DNA of 64,000 nucleotides from Escherichia coli (GTDB lineage: Bacteria; Pseudomonadota; Gammaproteobacteria; Enterobacterales; Enterobacteriaceae). Of this stretch, positions 28,513-46,134 are shown piece by piece. The notes under the pieces were generated by a model. That model was not told the origin of the DNA. It did not search any database and worked only from the letters and a program-made list of their open reading frames with translations. The DNA is taken from NCBI RefSeq assembly GCF_013315695.1, contig NZ_CP054353.1. The stretch is one strand, 5' to 3'. The position numbers were made by a program, and so were the translations under genes. Every line of letters starts with the position of its first letter. The first letter of the stretch is position 1.

Positions 28513-28620
28513 GGTATTCCTTACCGGAGAAATTATAAGCCCGACAACAATACGCCTGTGGCATTGTTAGCTCAAACTTATCGCGAGTGATTTGGCTCAC
28601 ACTCCGGTAAAGATTCCCCA

Positions 28621-29548: not shown

Positions 29549-29699
29549 GTTTATTACTCCCTTTAATGTCTGTTTCCGAGCATTTAACAAGATAGTCCTT
29601 AACAACTTCTTAAGGGAAAAAAATAAAATTTAATGCTGTACAGAGCGCGTTACAACACGGTTTACTGGCAGCAAATACGGTTATCGCAGGGATGAAAAA

Positions 29700-30359
29700 A
29701 TGCGAATTTTACTGATAGAAGATGACATGCTGATTGGCGACGGCATCAAAACGGGCCTTAGTAAAATGGGTTTTAGCGTCGACTGGTTTACACAAGGTCG
29801 TCAGGGAAAAGAGGCGCTATATAGCGCACCTTATGATGCGGTGATCCTGGATTTAACCTTACCGGGCATGGATGGTCGCGATATTTTGCGCGAATGGCGA
29901 GAAAAAGGTCAGCGTGAGCCGGTTTTGATCCTGACCGCGCGCGATGCGCTGGCGGAACGTGTAGAAGGGCTGCGTCTGGGAGCTGACGATTATCTGTGTA
30001 AACCTTTTGCGTTGATAGAAGTCGCCGCCAGGCTGGAAGCTCTGATGCGCCGAACCAACGGCCAGGCCAGCAACGAGCTGCGCCACGGCAACGTCATGCT
30101 CGACCCCGGCAAACGTATCGCCACGCTGGCTGGCGAACCCTTAACGCTGAAGCCAAAAGAATTTGCCCTGCTGGAATTACTGATGCGTAACGCTGGTCGG
30201 GTACTGCCGCGCAAACTGATTGAAGAGAAACTGTATACCTGGGACGAAGAGGTCACCAGTAATGCCGTTGAAGTGCATGTGCATCATCTGCGACGCAAAC
30301 TCGGCAGTGATTTTATTCGTACCGTTCATGGTATTGGCTACACATTAGGTGAGAAATGA
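29700..30359 (+). CDS. qseB: OmpR-family response regulator
   Basis: 219 aa; receiver plus winged-helix domains. Confidence 0.9.
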
Positions 30360-31705
30360 AATTTACCCAACGTCTTAGTCTGCGAGTCAGGCTAACGCTA
30401 ATCTTTTTAATTCTGGCCTCGGTGACCTGGCTGCTTTCCAGCTTTGTCGCCTGGAAACAAACAACGGATAACGTCGATGAGTTGTTCGACACCCAACTGA
30501 TGCTGTTTGCCAAACGGTTAAGTACGCTCGATCTCAACGAAATCAACGCGGCGGATCGCATGGCACAGACGCCAAATAAATTAAAACACGGTCATGTTGA
30601 TGACGATGCGCTGACCTTTGCCATCTTTACCCACGACGGCAGAATGGTCCTTAACGATGGCGATAATGGAGAAGATATTCCTTATAGCTATCAACGAGAA
30701 GGTTTTGCTGACGGGCAACTGGTGGGCGATAAAGATCAATGGCGTTTTGTCTGGATGACCTCACCTGATGGCAAATATCGCATTGTTGTTGGTCAGGAAT
30801 GGGAATACCGTGAAGACATGGCGCTGGCGATTGTTGCCGGACAATTGATCCCGTGGCTGGTCGCACTGCCGATTATGTTAATCATCATGATGGTACTACT
30901 GGGTCGTGAACTCGCGCCGCTGAACAAACTGGCGCTGGCACTACGTATGCGTGACCCAGACTCGGAAAAACCACTAAACGCGACGGGCGTACCCAGCGAA
31001 GTGCGCCCACTGGTTGAGTCGTTGAATCAACTGTTCGCCCGCACACATGCGATGATGGTTCGTGAACGACGCTTTACCTCCGACGCAGCTCACGAACTTC
31101 GTAGCCCGTTAACGGCGCTGAAAGTGCAAACCGAAGTTGCTCAGCTCTCTGACGATGATCCGCAGGCGCGGAAAAAAGCGCTGCTCCAATTACATTCCGG
31201 GATCGATCGCGCTACTCGTCTGGTTGATCAACTGCTCACGCTATCGCGGCTGGACTCACTGGATAACCTTCAGGACGTCGCGGAGATCCCGCTTGAAGAT
31301 CTCCTGCAATCGTCGGTGATGGATATTTACCACACGGCGCAGCAGGCGAAAATTGACGTGCGACTGACACTCAATGCCCACGGCATCAAACGTACCGGAC
31401 AACCGCTGTTGCTAAGTTTGTTGGTACGAAACCTTCTGGATAACGCCGTGCGCTACAGTCCACAGGGCTGCGTGGTGGACGTCACGCTGAATGCCGATAA
31501 TTTCATCGTGAGGGATAACGGCCCCGGTGTGACGCCAGAGGCACTGGCGAGAATTGGCGAACGCTTCTATCGCCCACCCGGACAAACCGCTACCGGCAGT
31601 GGACTTGGGCTATCGATTGTCCAGCGAATCGCCAAGCTGCATGACATGAATGTTGAATTTGGGAATGCGGAACAAGGTGGATTTGAGGCGAAGGTAAGCT
31701 GGTAA
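30356..31705 (+). CDS. qseC: sensor histidine kinase
   Basis: 449 aa; H-box (AAHELRSPL); 4-bp overlap with qseB. Confidence 0.9.
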
Positions 31706-31814
31706 GGGTAAGACTTTTGCTAAATTCGCAAAAGACTTTGCACATTTTGCTAATTTCACCGTACCGCTCTGTGACGTACTATAGTCGGCAAACGTCTCAC
31801 CTTGAGGTTAAAAA

Positions 31815-32396
31815 ATGAGCAACATCCTGATTATCAACGGCGCGAAAAAATTCGCCCACTCCAATGGTCAACTGAACGACACCCTGACCGAAGTCGCGGA
31901 TGGCACACTGCGCGACCTCGGGCATGATGTCCGCATCGTTCGCGCCGACAGCGACTACGATGTCAAAGCGGAAGTACAAAACTTTCTCTGGGCTGATGTG
32001 GTGATCTGGCAGATGCCAGGCTGGTGGATGGGCGCGCCGTGGACAGTGAAAAAATACATTGATGATGTATTCACCGAAGGTCACGGGACGCTGTATGCCA
32101 GCGATGGTCGTACCCGCAAAGATCCGTCGAAAAAATACGGCTCCGGCGGCCTGGTACAGGGCAAAAAATATATGCTTTCTCTGACCTGGAACGCACCAAT
32201 GGAAGCCTTCACCGAAAAAGATCAGTTCTTCCACGGCGTTGGTGTTGACGGTGTGTACCTGCCGTTCCATAAAGCAAACCAATTCCTTGGCATGGAACCG
32301 CTGCCGACATTTATCGCTAATGACGTGATAAAAATGCCTGATGTTCCCCGCTATACTGAAGAATATCGCAAGCATCTTGTGGAAATTTTTGGTTAA
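31815..32396 (+). CDS. mdaB: NADPH:quinone oxidoreductase
   Basis: 193 aa flavodoxin-like. Confidence 0.9.
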   Translation: MSNILIINGAKKFAHSNGQLNDTLTEVADGTLRDLGHDVRIVRADSDYDVKAEVQNFLWADVVIWQMPGWWMGAPWTVKKYIDDVFTEGHGTLYASDGRTRKDPSKKYGSGGLVQGKKYMLSLTWNAPMEAFTEKDQFFHGVGVDGVYLPFHKANQFLGMEPLPTFIANDVIKMPDVPRYTEEYRKHLVEIFG

Positions 32397-32426
32397 CTAG
32401 AGCTCTGGCTTTAGAAGGAGTTAACC

Positions 32427-32741
32427 ATGATTACAGTAATCGCAGAAATCCGTACTCGTCCTGGTCAACATCACCGTCAGGCAGTGTTGGATCAGTTTGC
32501 TAAAATCGTTCCAACCGTACTGAAAGAAGAAGGTTGCCACGGCTATGCGCCAATGGTGGATTGCGCTGCTGGCGTGAGTTTCCAGTCTATGGCACCGGAT
32601 TCTATCGTGATGATTGAGCAGTGGGAAAGCATCGCGCATCTTGAAGCGCATCTGCAAACCCCGCACATGAAAGCATATAGCGAAGCCGTAAAAGGTGACG
32701 TGCTGGAGATGAATATTCGTATCCTGCAGCCGGGGCTTTGA
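32427..32741 (+). CDS. ygiN: quinol monooxygenase (ABM domain)
   Basis: 104 aa. Confidence 0.85.
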   Translation: MITVIAEIRTRPGQHHRQAVLDQFAKIVPTVLKEEGCHGYAPMVDCAAGVSFQSMAPDSIVMIEQWESIAHLEAHLQTPHMKAYSEAVKGDVLEMNIRILQPGL

Positions 32742-32785: not shown

Positions 32786-33673
32786 TTAGCCATTCTTTCT
32801 TCCCGTTTTCAGTCCTCGATGGAAATCGTTAATTCGCTTAATGGTTTTAACCGCACGCTGCGGCACTGCGGAAGCTACCGACCAGACAATCATTTCCAGA
32901 CACAACAATACCGTACCATGTAGCGGCGTTTTCCCTTTTTCATCCCCGCGCGGAACATGAATCACGATACTGGCGTCTTTGCTAAAACGTGAATCCAGCG
33001 CGTTTGTCAGCAAAATAACAGGGATCCCCAGCCGCCTCGCCTCACGAAGCGTTGTCAGCCCTTCCCGGTGCGCAGATTTTTGCGCCATCATGATCAGAAC
33101 ATCGCCACGTTGAAGCGCGATCAGTTGCTCGGCAAGGCCAATACCCGTACGGTTTAGTGCCGTGGCAGGCAAACCTATGCGGTTGAATAGTCGTGCGGTA
33201 TAGTCCGCCAGGATACCCGAAGCGCCAATGCCAAAAATAGCGACTTGCCGTGCCTGCACCAACAACGCTACAGCTTGCGCAAGCGCGTGGCGGTTTTCAG
33301 GCTCTGACAGGACATTACAGGTATACAAATGCCCTTCAAGAACAAAGTCGATTGCGGTGTTAACATCGCTCGTCAAGTTACTCACCGTCGTAGACATCTT
33401 TTCGCTGGAACTAAGGGCTGGACCAAGCCACTGTTCCAGAGTGCGTTTCAGATCACGCAGCCCGGCAAACCCCAGGGCCTGTATAGCCCTGATAACAGTG
33501 GCATCGGAAGTGTTCAACGTGGCCGCAATTTCCATCGCCGTTTGCTCGAGTACCACTTCACGATGCTCATTAATGTAGCTGGCGACAGCTCTTAACCCAG
33601 GCGTTAACTGACTCGCGCGAGTGCGAAAACGCTCACCAAAAATATCAACCCGCGCTTTATCTTTCTGGATCAT
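32786..33673 (-). CDS. RpiR/MurR-family regulator (HTH_6 plus SIS domain)
   Basis: 295 aa; last gene of the ABC transporter operon, 4-bp overlap with the binding-protein gene. Confidence 0.8.
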   Translation of the reverse strand: MIQKDKARVDIFGERFRTRASQLTPGLRAVASYINEHREVVLEQTAMEIAATLNTSDATVIRAIQALGFAGLRDLKRTLEQWLGPALSSSEKMSTTVSNLTSDVNTAIDFVLEGHLYTCNVLSEPENRHALAQAVALLVQARQVAIFGIGASGILADYTARLFNRIGLPATALNRTGIGLAEQLIALQRGDVLIMMAQKSAHREGLTTLREARRLGIPVILLTNALDSRFSKDASIVIHVPRGDEKGKTPLHGTVLLCLEMIVWSVASAVPQRAVKTIKRINDFHRGLKTGRKNG

Positions 33674-34617
33674 TTAGCCTCCGGTAGAGGTCGCCCTGCA
33701 ATTTGTGATTGTATCTGCGCAGCCATCAGCCCCAGTGATGCAAAGGAGTTAGAAATTGCCTCTTCACGAGAAATCAGCACATAACGCCCGGAACGACAGG
33801 CAGTCAGAAACTGACACCATCCCGGCATGACTTTTTCCATTGCTGCCAGCTCATCCTGAGGTTTACCACCGGTGTCACCGCGCCAGGTTGCAAAAACAAA
33901 ATCGGCATCCAGTTCAGGTAAACGCTCCGCGCTCACATCCATTCGCCCACCTTCAGGAATGCTCTCAATCAGCGGCGGAAAACGAAAACCAGCATCGCGT
34001 AATACCCGCCCCAGCGAATGATAGCTATGCATCACATTAATTTTTCCCTGGTTTGCCTGAATCACCGATACCGTTATTTTTTGGCTGTCCAGCGTCGCCT
34101 TCAGCGCATTGATTTGTGCCTGATAGCGGCGTTCAAGTATCGCCAGCTGCGACTGCGTTCCTGTAAGTTCTGCCAGCTTGCGATAGATTTCTGGCGCGCC
34201 CCCTTTGAGATGATCAATGCTCACCGTGGGCGCAATTTTTTCAAGTTGTTCAATGGGCGTATTACGGGTCGGTTCTGTGATGATCAAGTCAGGCTTTGCC
34301 GCCACAATCGCTTCAATATCAATATCAGCGGTACCAATAAAGGCGATCGATGAATTATCAAAGTCGACACCTGTCAATAACGCGCCAGATCGAATGAAAT
34401 GGCTACCGTCAGGCCGAGTTCGCCCGTGGCTGGCGACAGGAGGTACACCGAGCTCAATCAGAGGAATAGTGATATCAAGATCGTGTAAAGAGACAATTCT
34501 CTTTGGATGAGCAGGAACAGTGACTTTGCGCCCTAAATCATCAGTAAATACCTGAACAGGTTCTGTTGCACGGGAAAAAAATGACAACAGTATCAGCAGA
34601 GAAAAAAATAAACGCAT
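33670..34617 (-). CDS. periplasmic iron-siderophore/cobalamin-type ABC substrate-binding protein
   Basis: About 315 aa from MRLFFSLLILLSFFSRA (signal peptide); GGGAG RBS. Confidence 0.8.
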   Translation of the reverse strand: MRLFFSLLILLSFFSRATEPVQVFTDDLGRKVTVPAHPKRIVSLHDLDITIPLIELGVPPVASHGRTRPDGSHFIRSGALLTGVDFDNSSIAFIGTADIDIEAIVAAKPDLIITEPTRNTPIEQLEKIAPTVSIDHLKGGAPEIYRKLAELTGTQSQLAILERRYQAQINALKATLDSQKITVSVIQANQGKINVMHSYHSLGRVLRDAGFRFPPLIESIPEGGRMDVSAERLPELDADFVFATWRGDTGGKPQDELAAMEKVMPGWCQFLTACRSGRYVLISREEAISNSFASLGLMAAQIQSQIAGRPLPEAK

Positions 34618-34627
34618 ATAACTCCCG

Positions 34628-35677
34628 TTAAAAACTGTTCCTGCGCTGCCAGAGCAGTAGCAAAAAAAATGGTCCACCAATCAGTGAGATAATGATTCCG
34701 GCAGGCAGTTGCAAAGGCAAAAAAGCCAAACGACCAATGCTATCCGCCAGAATAACTAACAACGCCCCCGATACCGCACTCCCCAGCAGTAATGTCGTCT
34801 GCCCGCCACGTAGAATAAAACGTGATATATGGGGTGCTATCAATCCGACAAAACCGATGTTACCAACACACGAAACGCAGACGGCTGTCAGGATTATGGG
34901 TGCGGCGACACGTAACAACGCCAGACGAGAACTATTCACCCCTAACCCGGTTGCAACCTGATGACCAAGCAGAGCGATATCCGCCGTCCTGGCGGTGAAC
35001 AGCAATAAAAGAGCGGCTGGCAACATCCAACAGGCTGAAATACCGACTAACATCCAGTTAGCTGCATGCAGGCTTCCCGATAACCACATCAATGCAGTTT
35101 GTACATCTCGAACATCTGCAGTGGTCATAAATACACCGATACCGGCGGCGAAAAACCAAGAAACACCAATACCAATCAGAACAAATCGCGGGCGGGAAAT
35201 ATCGCGCGCACAAAAAATCACGATTAAAGCCACCAACAGGCCACCAGCAAGACCAGCCACTGGACGCCAGAACACTCCCAGCATTGGAAACTGGAAAATC
35301 AGCCACAGCACAGCCACGCTACATCCTTCTTTGACGCCGATTAACCCAGGATCGGCAAGGCCGTTACGTGCAATGGATTGCATTGCGGCCCCTGCCATAC
35401 CTAACATGGCCCCGCATAGCAATGCCATGATGACTCTCGGCAAGCGAATATCCTGCACAATATAACGTGCGTCTGTGCTTACGTTTTCTGGAGCAAACAA
35501 CGCTCGTCCTACTTCCGATGCCGGAACAGAGAAAGAACCCTGCATCAGACCGAATATCAGTATTCCAACCGCAAACAGAAACAGCCCACCAAGCAACAGC
35601 AGATTTTTAGGGCGTACCAGTGTCGAAAACTTACCAACACGTAGTGGGCGTAGCCCGACGTTCATTATCCGACTCAT
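34628..35677 (-). CDS. FecCD-family ABC permease
   Basis: 349 aa polytopic membrane protein. Confidence 0.8.
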   Translation of the reverse strand: MSRIMNVGLRPLRVGKFSTLVRPKNLLLLGGLFLFAVGILIFGLMQGSFSVPASEVGRALFAPENVSTDARYIVQDIRLPRVIMALLCGAMLGMAGAAMQSIARNGLADPGLIGVKEGCSVAVLWLIFQFPMLGVFWRPVAGLAGGLLVALIVIFCARDISRPRFVLIGIGVSWFFAAGIGVFMTTADVRDVQTALMWLSGSLHAANWMLVGISACWMLPAALLLLFTARTADIALLGHQVATGLGVNSSRLALLRVAAPIILTAVCVSCVGNIGFVGLIAPHISRFILRGGQTTLLLGSAVSGALLVILADSIGRLAFLPLQLPAGIIISLIGGPFFLLLLWQRRNSF

Positions 35678-43818: not shown

Positions 43819-44448
43819 TTATGCCCACTCATTTTTTAACGCTTGATGATGCAGCTGCAGCCATTGCAAAGCGATGACCGACGCTGCGTTGTCGATTTTC
43901 CCCTCTTCTACCCACTGGTATGCCTGTTCCCGGCTTACCACATGAACGCGAATATCTTCGTTTTCATCAGCCAGACCGTGAATACCGCTTGCGGTCGTGG
44001 CGTCCACTTCGCCCACCATAATTGACGAACGCTCACTGGTGCCCCCCGGGCTTGCCAGGAAACTTAACACCGGTTTGGTCCGTTTGACTATCAGCCCCGC
44101 CTCTTCAATCGCTTCGCGACGGGCAACATCTTCCACACTTTCCCCCTCTTCAATCATCCCGGCAACCATCTCCAGTAGCCAGGGGGTTTCGCTAGTGTCG
44201 TACGCGGCAATTCGAATCTGCTCAATCAGCACAACTTCATCACGCACTGGGTCAAAGGGTAGCAAGACTGCGGCGTGACCGCGCTCAAAAATTTCCCGCC
44301 GTACCTCATGACTCATTTGCCCGTTGAATAGACGATGACGAAATCTATAAAGATCTAATGAAAAAAAGCCGCGATAAAGTGTTTCTCGTGCAATAATTTC
44401 TACATCGTTTTTGCCAAATGTAACGGGCAGGTTGTCTGGCTTAAGCAT
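43819..44448 (-). CDS. nudF: ADP-ribose pyrophosphatase (Nudix)
   Basis: 209 aa; Nudix box. Confidence 0.85.
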
Positions 44449-44652
44449 TGTTAATGTCCTGGCACTAATAGTGAATTAAATGTGAATTTCAGCGACGTTT
44501 GACTGCCGTTTGAGCAGTCATGTGTTAAATTGAGGCACATTAACGCCCTATGGCACGTAACGCCAACCTTTTGCGGTAGCGGCTTCTGCTAGAATCCGCA
44601 ATAATTTTACAGTTTGATCGCGCTAAATACTGCTTCACCACAAGGAATGCAA

Positions 44653-46134
44653 ATGAAGAAATTGCTCCCCATTCTTATCGGCCTGAGCCTTTCTGGGTTC
44701 AGTTCGTTGAGCCAGGCCGAGAACCTGATGCAAGTTTATCAGCAAGCACGCCTTAGTAACCCGGAATTGCGTAAGTCTGCTGCCGATCGTGATGCTGCCT
44801 TTGAAAAAATTAATGAAGCGCGCAGTCCATTACTGCCACAGCTAGGTTTAGGTGCAGATTACACCTACAGCAACGGCTACCGCGACGCGAACGGCATCAA
44901 CTCTAACGCGACCAGTGCGTCCCTGCAGTTAACTCAATCCATTTTTGATATGTCGAAATGGCATGCGTTAACGCTGCAGGAAAAAGCAGCTGGGATTCAG
45001 GACGTCACGTATCAGACCGATCAACAAACCTTGATCCTCAACACCGCGACCGCTTATTTCAACGTGTTGAATGCTATTGACGTTCTTTCCTATACACAGG
45101 CGCAAAAAGAAGCGATCTACCGTCAATTAGATCAAACCACCCAACGTTTTAACGTGGGCCTGGTAGCGATCACTGACGTGCAGAACGCCCGCGCACAGTA
45201 CGATACCGTGCTGGCGAACGAAGTGACCGCACGTAATAACCTTGATAACGCGGTAGAGCAGCTGCGCCAGATCACCGGTAACTACTATCCGGAACTGGCG
45301 GCGCTGAATGTCGAAAACTTTAAAACCGACAAACCACAGCCGGTTAACACGCTGCTGAAAGAAGCCGAAAAACGCAACCTGTCGTTGTTACAGGCGCGCT
45401 TGAGCCAGGACCTGGCGCGCGAGCAAATTCGCCAGGCGCAGGATGGTCACTTACCGACTCTGGATTTAACGGCTTCTACCGGGATTTCTGACACCTCTTA
45501 TAGCGGTTCGAAAACCCGTGGTGCCGCTGGTACCCAGTATGACGATAGCAATATGGGCCAGAACAAAGTTGGCCTGAGCTTCTCGCTGCCGATTTATCAG
45601 GGCGGAATGGTTAACTCGCAGGTGAAACAGGCCCAGTACAACTTTGTTGGTGCCAGCGAGCAACTGGAAAGCGCGCATCGTAGCGTCGTGCAAACCGTAC
45701 GTTCCTCCTTCAACAACATTAATGCTTCTATCAGTAGCATTAACGCCTACAAACAAGCCGTAGTTTCCGCTCAAAGCTCATTAGACGCGATGGAAGCGGG
45801 CTACTCGGTCGGTACGCGTACCATTGTTGATGTGTTGGATGCGACCACCACGCTGTACAACGCTAAGCAAGAGCTGGCAAATGCGCGTTATAACTACCTG
45901 ATTAACCAGTTGAATATTAAGTCAGCTCTGGGTACGTTGAACGAGCAGGATCTGCTGGCACTGAACAATGCGCTGAGCAAACCGGTTTCCACTAATCCGG
46001 AAAACGTTGCCCCGCAAACGCCGGAACAGAATGCTATTGCTGATGGTTATGCGCCTGATAGCCCGGCACCCGTCGTTCAGCAAACATCCGCACGCACTAC
46101 CACCAGTAACGGTCATAACCCTTTCCGTAACTGA
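44653..46134 (+). CDS. tolC: outer-membrane efflux channel
   Basis: 493 aa from MKKLLPILIGLSL...; AAGGA RBS. Confidence 0.95.
   Translation: MKKLLPILIGLSLSGFSSLSQAENLMQVYQQARLSNPELRKSAADRDAAFEKINEARSPLLPQLGLGADYTYSNGYRDANGINSNATSASLQLTQSIFDMSKWHALTLQEKAAGIQDVTYQTDQQTLILNTATAYFNVLNAIDVLSYTQAQKEAIYRQLDQTTQRFNVGLVAITDVQNARAQYDTVLANEVTARNNLDNAVEQLRQITGNYYPELAALNVENFKTDKPQPVNTLLKEAEKRNLSLLQARLSQDLAREQIRQAQDGHLPTLDLTASTGISDTSYSGSKTRGAAGTQYDDSNMGQNKVGLSFSLPIYQGGMVNSQVKQAQYNFVGASEQLESAHRSVVQTVRSSFNNINASISSINAYKQAVVSAQSSLDAMEAGYSVGTRTIVDVLDATTTLYNAKQELANARYNYLINQLNIKSALGTLNEQDLLALNNALSKPVSTNPENVAPQTPEQNAIADGYAPDSPAPVVQQTSARTTTSNGHNPFRN

Follow-up and report, generated by a model that had tools for sequence, protein, structure and literature searches.

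Does the inverted repeat in the spacer between qseC and mdaB of Escherichia coli end the transcript of the gene on its left or control the gene on its right, and why does the spacer examined here lack ygiZ? We addressed both questions in a 64,000-nt stretch of an E. coli genome (here called the window) and in the corresponding regions of other enterobacteria.

Anatomy of the spacer

The gene order in the window runs from ygiS, ygiV, and ygiW (all on the minus strand) through qseB and qseC to the spacer, and from there to mdaB and ygiN, and over these genes the window is identical (100%) to E. coli strain VTB96816v. The initial annotation had described a spacer of 109 bp without ygiZ, and both points hold: the stop codon of qseC and the start codon of mdaB leave positions 31706-31814 between them, and this interval contains no ygiZ-like open reading frame. 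The features of the region are as follows.

29700-30359: qseB.
30356-31705, plus strand: qseC, sensor kinase, with its TAA stop codon at 31703-31705, as placed by the list of open reading frames and by the qseC annotation in matching E. coli genomes.
31706-31814: qseC-mdaB spacer, 109 bp.
31706-31710: junction GGGTA, empty here and filled by ygiZ alone, or by hcp, an effector gene, and ygiZ, in other E. coli strains.
31804-31807, plus strand: GAGG, the Shine-Dalgarno sequence of mdaB, kept in the alignment.
31815-32396, plus strand: mdaB, with its ATG at 31815.
32427-32741, plus strand: ygiN, which with mdaB makes up the operon served by the spacer (31815-32741).

Two further differences in gene content lie nearby. 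The gap between ygiS and ygiV is only about 108 bp long (28513-28620), and strain NGF1 likewise lacks mqsR-mqsA; in K-12, this gap presumably holds the mqsR-mqsA toxin-antitoxin pair, which would make it a second presence/absence polymorphism of the neighborhood. Downstream of ygiN (32786-34680 onward), the window encodes a MurR/RpiR-type regulator and an iron-siderophore ABC transporter, to which NGF1 adds a TonB-dependent receptor. We take parE to follow ygiN directly in K-12, and the genes that follow ygiN in the window to resemble the fit iron-uptake locus.

The inverted repeat and the near-repeat

The inverted repeat had been put forward as a perfect 11-bp stem, which overstates it: 10 of the 11 positions pair, an A.A mismatch joins positions 31713 and 31735, and the perfect core is the 7-bp CTTTTGC/GCAAAAG. 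The near-repeat reported beside it is genuine and takes the form of a direct repeat, TTTTGCTAAATTC (31715-31727) against TTTTGCTAATTTC (31745-31757), with 12 of 13 positions identical; AAGACTTT occurs twice in the spacer, 22 bp apart. The parts of the inverted repeat are the following.

31710-31720, plus strand: left arm, AAGACTTTTGC; across genera only TTGC (31717-31720) is kept, and most genera have ATTATTGC.
31721-31727, plus strand: loop or spacer TAAATTC, 7 nt, of fixed length and free sequence across genera.
31728-31738, plus strand: right arm, GCAAAAGACTT, within the invariant run GCAAAAGACTTTGCACATTTTGC (column identity above 0.9 over 84 sequences).

When the spacer was shuffled with its dinucleotide composition preserved, 0.8% of shuffles contained an inverted repeat of 11 bp with no more than one mismatch and a loop of 3 to 12 nt, and 6.8% contained a perfect 7-bp inverted repeat. 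Taken alone, the inverted repeat is only mildly unusual; the element is real because it is conserved across genera, not because of the repeat statistics.

Three states of the site

The initial annotation was right in placing ygiZ at this site in K-12: in both K-12 and BW25113, ygiZ (DUF2645) lies on the minus strand with qseC and mdaB on either side, and the K-12 spacer measures 696 bp. NGF1 and many other strains have a third arrangement, in which hcp and a gene for a 236-amino-acid protein accompany ygiZ. The 5,426 complete E. coli genomes are distributed over the three states as follows.

(i) Empty site, as in the window and also in O157:H7: 822 of 5,426 genomes.

(ii) ygiZ only: about 3,300 of 5,426 genomes.

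(iii) Full cassette of hcp, the 236-amino-acid gene, and ygiZ: 1,262 of 5,426 genomes.

The first of these is the common one outside E. coli. With one genome taken per species, the spacer is 102 to 110 bp long in 76 of 80 Enterobacteriaceae species, and it is exactly 109 bp long in E. albertii and in two other Escherichia lineages. Since nearly all species have the short spacer, we regard that spacer as ancestral and ygiZ as an insertion in some lineages. By this comparison, the missing ygiZ is the ancestral state and the ordinary arrangement, from which nothing has been lost.

K-12 and NGF1 part from the window immediately past the stop codon of qseC and rejoin it at AGACTTTTGC, and the megablast alignment breaks at query position 505/506, which corresponds to 31710/31711. 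K-12 shares with the window qseC, the element from AGACTTTTGC onward, mdaB, and ygiN, at about 98% identity; it differs in having about 590 bp of extra DNA, with minus-strand ygiZ and a strong, apparently bidirectional terminator hairpin beside the qseC stop codon, and in having a ygiZ promoter activated by BglJ-RcsB (PMC3950696).

That hairpin is shared by the convergent genes qseC and ygiZ in the K-12 lineage (L001, 808-841): TCTATGAGAG...CTCTCATAGA, followed by TTTT, folds at -18 to -21 kcal/mol on either strand, with z about -6. It has the look of a terminator acting in both directions and brought in with the ygiZ insertion, and it is absent from the window.

To look for a target-site duplication where the cassette joins the locus, we set the K-12 right flank GGTGAGTCAGAGTAAGA against the window; the match was not significant (p about 0.3), and the candidate was rejected. 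Separately, this right flank (GGTGAGTCAGAGTAAGA, then TCAGA; L001, 1373-1395) resembles the qseC 3' end GGTGAGCTGGTCAGAGTAAGA of Escherichia sp. MOD1-EC7003 (L007), a member of another Escherichia clade, a likeness that hints that duplication or replacement of the end of qseC may have accompanied the arrival of the cassette.

The repeat travels with mdaB and lies in a conserved block

From AGACTTTTGC up to the mdaB start codon, the window, K-12, and NGF1 agree in sequence, even though this segment stands 0.6 to 1.7 kb away from qseC in the latter two. The 40 nt at 31711-31750 are 100% identical among the E. coli matches listed, and the best match reaches an identity of at least 99% in 4,924 of 5,288 matching genomes. 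The element is thus unchanged beside mdaB in all three states, and therefore the repeat travels with mdaB, not with qseC.

An alignment of 84 upstream regions from about 80 enterobacterial species reveals a near-invariant block, ATTATTGC-N7-GCAAAAGACTTTGCACATTTTGCTnATTT, followed by a conserved -10 element. After ATTATTGC and the 7-nt gap, the conserved segments are, in order, GCAAAAGACTTTGCACATTTTGCT(A/C)ATTT, TT(n)ACC, GTAnnAT, and GAGG. Both ATTATTGC and GCAAAAGACTTTGCACATTTTGC are nearly invariant in the same species in which QseC falls to about 66% identity, and the block must therefore be under strong constraint. What is conserved is sequence and not structure, Salmonella being the exception, and the pattern, as read from this alignment, is the signature of protein-DNA recognition rather than of an RNA stem.

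Predicted marboxes and the mdaB promoter

The conserved block contains two predicted binding sites for activators of the MarA type (marboxes), and promoter-like elements follow.

31716-31735, plus strand, forward: site 1, a 20-mer that resembles a marbox and falls on the hairpin (15-mer GCTAAATTCGCAAAA, center 31726).
31737-31756, plus strand, forward: site 2, predicted marbox TTTGCACATTTTGCTAATTT (15-mer GCACATTTTGCTAAT, center 31747), which contains the near-repeat.
31748-31756, plus strand: alternative extended -10, TGcTAATTT, a conjectural reading of the hexamer that fits the K-12 transcription start site (TSS) equivalent to 31763.
31755-31760, plus strand: weak -35-like TTCACC of a putative promoter, P1, kept as TT(c/t/a)ACC, 16 bp upstream of the -10.
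31777-31782, plus strand: predicted -10 of mdaB P1, TACTAT, kept as GTAnnAT (TAAAAT, TAGAAT, TAACAT, and TATCAT across genera).

To score the two sites, we used a marbox matrix built from 87 ChIP-seq sites and ranked the results among 127,972 window positions. Site 2, which has two mismatches to the marbox consensus AYnGCACnnWnnRYYAAAY, scores 10.3 bits (rank 24 of 127,972), inside the range of the training sites; site 1, which lacks the AC of GCAC, scores 7.4 bits (rank 129 of 127,972), just under the 10th percentile of the training set. The degenerate consensus by itself is not specific, as it is not enriched in the window (15 matches against 17.7 expected). One of its matches in the window, ATGGCACGTAACGCCAACC (44550-44568), has a single mismatch and lies between the putative nudF (43819-44448) and tolC (44614-46134); in all likelihood this is the tolC marbox already known, and it serves as a positive control of the consensus scan.

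Across species, the two sites behave differently. Site 1 has a median score of 8.6 bits in the forward orientation and 1.6 bits in the reverse, scores at or above the 10th percentile of the training set in 64% of species (in the forward orientation only), and keeps G1, C2, G10, C11, and A12-15, which are high-information positions of the marbox motif. Site 2 reads GCTCAT in many genera, Klebsiella and Enterobacter among them, and there it scores poorly (species median 2.9 bits), yet the block remains invariant. Since the block is invariant where site 2 scores poorly, a constraint beyond MarA-type binding probably acts on it.

From the conserved -10, the predicted start of P1 falls at about 31789, and sites 2 and 1 would then lie near -42 and -63, respectively. 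Relative to this predicted start, site 2 would fall within the range of about -36 to -55, overlapping the -35, that class II marboxes occupy. The promoter itself would be weak: a consensus scan of the spacer region returned no sigma-70 match, P1 having 8 of 12 positions against a threshold of 9 of 12. The published K-12 coordinates used for comparison were calibrated on what we take to be the marR start codon. In that source (PMC12052159, Table S2), the "position" column has an unexplained 10-nt offset in some rows, and TSS and site coordinates were used instead. These place a TSS at 3170500 and a marbox center at 3170484, that is, a TSS 16 nt downstream of the site 2 center (PMC12052159, Table S2). 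After conversion, the K-12 TSSs nearest the two sites are equivalent to 31715 and 31763 in the window, not to about 31789.

Published work connects mdaB with this class of activators. The 15-mers of sites 1 and 2 both appear next to mdaB in a list of predicted marboxes (PMC12052159, Table S2); mdaB is cited as a member of the mar regulon (PMC2989944) and said to be MarA activated (bioRxiv 10.1101/2020.04.27.065417); and deletion of ramA in Salmonella lowers mdaB 3.2-fold and ygiN 2.3-fold (PMC3139621). In Salmonella, mdaB and ygiN are cotranscribed, and primer extension for the mdaB start failed (PMC2653508). The genome-wide surveys are silent: mdaB is without a peak in the published ChIP-seq table for Salmonella, goes unmentioned in the main text of the MarA ChIP-seq paper on E. 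coli, and is not among the high-quality MarA targets based on EcoCyc (PMC12052159, Table S3), a table by which ChIP-seq misses many proven MarA targets.

The closest known arrangement is that of class II promoters of the Mar/Sox/Rob (RamA) type, such as lpxC P2, lpxL P1, and rfaY P1, in which a forward marbox overlaps the -35 (PMC12052159). Like these, mdaB has a predicted 20-bp marbox in the forward orientation whose GCAC and GCTAA elements are separated by 9 bp; its -35 is poor and its -10 recognizable, the site center lies about 41 to 43 bp upstream of the predicted start, and a response to MarA/RamA has been published. Unlike them, it has an additional forward site, weaker and one 21-bp unit farther upstream (at about -63), no peak in the ChIP-seq tables, and a block far more conserved than a degenerate marbox requires. 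Favored activator positions are about -41 in the forward orientation and about -62 and -72, and sites at -62 are usually reversed (PMC10268841). The predicted places of sites 2 and 1 are near the first two of these, but site 1 is forward at about -63, which counts against its reading as an activator site.

We consider it reasonably probable that the spacer is the ancestral compact junction and that the repeat is activator-binding DNA of the mdaB-ygiN promoter, acting through the predicted marboxes. The mdaB marbox is reportedly credited to Martin and Rosner, 2002. The block TTGC-N7-GCAAAAGAC-TTTGCACATTTTGCTAAT, followed by the weak -35 and the conserved -10, would then be the upstream control region of mdaB-ygiN, with the inverted repeat as its distal end and a DNA-level element. 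Monomeric AraC/XylS-type activators (MarA, SoxS, and Rob, with RamA in other genera) would bind site 2 in the class II position (about -42) and probably also the weaker site 1, that is, the hairpin itself. Their binding would bring RNA polymerase to a promoter that is weak without it, and drug or redox stress would induce MdaB, a quinone reductase, and YgiN, a quinol monooxygenase. The palindromic look may come about by chance, the conserved GC...GCAAAAG of site 1 happening to follow CTTTTGC in Escherichia. An element of this kind is known, and mdaB is a known member of the regulon; in that respect, the finding is ordinary.

The hairpin as a possible terminator of qseBC

The initial annotation had offered the hairpin as either the qseBC terminator or an mdaB operator. 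The operator is the alternative that gains, given that the element stays with mdaB and the block ends in a conserved -10, and the terminator is the one that loses. We nevertheless weighed the terminator in full, as a weak, noncanonical intrinsic terminator or a 3'-end stabilizer of the qseBC transcript, which may overlap the control DNA of mdaB and so have a dual role.

The position is favorable, with the hairpin beginning 5 nt past the qseC stop codon and no other hairpin in the spacer, but the signal is poor. A terminator scan of 31300-32200 returned no terminator-like site; the fold in the window has an energy of -9.3 kcal/mol (z of -1.1) and is equaled in stability by 29 of 200 shuffles; the stem is AU rich, with two G-C pairs in its perfect core; and the tail, UGCACAUU, has no U run right after the stem. 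A scan of 31400-32000 against Rfam gave as its only match a snoRNA model inside mdaB (E = 8), which we attribute to chance.

The comparison among genera points the same way. In most of them, the left arm ATTATTGC breaks the stem (A.A in 69 of 84 and 79 of 84 sequences), and the Klebsiella and Enterobacter folds have z scores above 0. When variable positions were shuffled (the 7-nt gap or the 12-nt upstream flank) and the invariant parts held fixed, the folds of 82 sequences were not weakened (mean z of -0.06 and -0.27). The loop of an alternative small stem is invariant, unlike what is seen in a structural element. Within the 7-nt gap, covariation between n2 and n6 (35 observed against 21.9 in shuffles) brought no stabilization in the energy test and was therefore set aside as phylogenetic or compositional noise; pairing of n1 with n7 across the alignment was no better than in shuffles.

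K-12 can be argued both ways: a separate strong hairpin with a U-tail stands between qseC and ygiZ (-18.1 kcal/mol, z of -6.2), which suggests that a terminator is needed after qseC, but the element itself is unchanged there at a distance of 590 bp from qseC.

The best case for termination comes from Salmonella. The 106-bp preB(qseC)-mdaB region of S. Typhimurium (PMC2653508) is like the window in being compact, in having the same conserved block, and in having mdaB-ygiN downstream, and reverse transcription-PCR across this short spacer gave no preB-mdaB product from cDNA (PMC2653508). It is unlike the window in its extra upstream complementarity and much more stable stem: lineage-specific bases upstream lengthen the Salmonella stem, which folds at -15 to -19 kcal/mol with flank-shuffle z scores of -2.7 and -3.8, and the U-rich ACAUUUUGCUAAUUU follows. 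The cotranscript and PreA-induction experiments (PMC2653508) come from Salmonella only. Taking both sides together, we judge a terminator or stabilizer function of the hairpin to be unlikely.

The same lengthening is seen in Salmonella enterica subsp. diarizonae and arizonae (L016 and L027, about 2390-2430), where GCAGAG or GCAAAG upstream of the left arm pairs with the invariant CTTTGC. The resulting stem is about 13 bp long and folds at -14.5 to -18.9 kcal/mol, the contribution of the flank being far above that of its shuffles. The extended stem may serve this lineage as a terminator, with the promoter element as its base.

Other candidate regulators

A second alternative keeps the element at the DNA level and assigns it to a different protein: the dyad TTGC-N7-GCAA, with the unit TTGC-N7-GCTAA 21 bp downstream, would be the operator of a dimeric AraC-type regulator, a LysR-type regulator, or the Rob-like two-domain STM3175/YgiV. 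Its appeal lies in the block, which is more conserved than a degenerate marbox would call for, even in genera with a low-scoring site 2, and in the repetition of the two dyad units with a period of 21 to 22 bp. For a LysR-type protein, TGC-N7-GCA can be read as a T-N11-A dyad centered near -65 of the predicted promoter, but this pattern is weak evidence, and no LysR gene is adjacent, the neighbors being qseC and ygiN.

STM3175 is encoded two genes upstream and has a Rob-like AraC DNA-binding domain (PMC10414762), and overexpression of PreA (QseB) raises STM3175 605-fold and mdaB 7- to 32-fold (PMC2653508). The QseB/PmrA box CTTAA-N6-CTTAA is absent from 31706-31814, so the effect of PreA on mdaB may be indirect, and STM3175 as intermediary would explain how QseB (PreA) raises mdaB. 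Against this, E. coli YgiV (160 amino acids in the window) has no DNA-binding domain, yet the block is kept in E. coli, and the difference in the left half-site between Salmonella/Escherichia and other genera is unrelated to YgiV architecture. An operator for any of these other regulators seems to us quite improbable. A CTTAA-N6-CTTAA direct repeat does occur elsewhere in the window, at 29598-29613 between ygiW and qseB, and is a PmrA/QseB-type box of the sort expected for autoregulation.

Further candidates were discarded by inspection. A sigma-54 reading of TTTGCAC-N-TTTTGC, checked by hand, leaves the GG-to-GC spacing 2 nt too short and one G missing. Half-sites for FNR, CRP, PurR, MarR, SlyA, NsrR, and Fur, as we take them to be, do not fit the spacer in spacing or sequence.

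That the palindrome arose by chance in AT-rich intergenic DNA, or was left behind by ygiZ excision, and has no function is very hard to credit: a perfect 7-bp repeat is indeed common enough among shuffles (6.8%) and the RNA fold is unremarkable, but the sequence is near-invariant in about 80 species, the 109-bp spacer is colinear with that of outgroup Escherichia, and the element cannot be an excision scar, being present together with ygiZ or the full cassette.

A proposed T6SS cassette at the same site

The same three-gene cassette is found at the same site in Citrobacter werkmanii and in a Pseudocitrobacter. We tentatively propose, at somewhat less than even confidence, that a type VI secretion system (T6SS) cassette made up of hcp, a putative lysozyme-fold effector of an undescribed family, and ygiZ has landed repeatedly between the qseC stop codon and the mdaB block, and that the ygiZ of K-12 (DUF2645) is an orphan immunity gene kept after the loss of hcp and the toxin.

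The closest known systems are the T6SS glycoside-hydrolase effector-immunity pairs Tse3-Tsi3 and Tge2-Tgi2 and the Hcp-linked orphan cassettes. The ygiZ cassette differs from these in that the family of its putative effector has no Pfam or NCBIfam model, and in that YgiZ, the putative immunity protein, is small and read as having three membrane spans rather than as a soluble periplasmic protein or a lipoprotein.

Implications

For the locus itself, the stakes are small: the "hairpin" would belong to the promoter of mdaB, not to qseC. The result nonetheless describes, upstream of a gene for drug and redox stress, a very highly conserved promoter block that is absent from published genome-wide maps, and this block may be a worthwhile target for footprinting.

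With its three states, the site is also a polymorphism with the potential to affect how E. coli strains compete with one another. If the immunity reading of ygiZ is true, the roughly 15% of E. coli with an empty site, this strain and O157:H7 included, would lack immunity and be sensitive to the roughly 23% with the full cassette. That reading, which offers a testable function for ygiZ, a gene of K-12, would matter more than the finding on the spacer itself.
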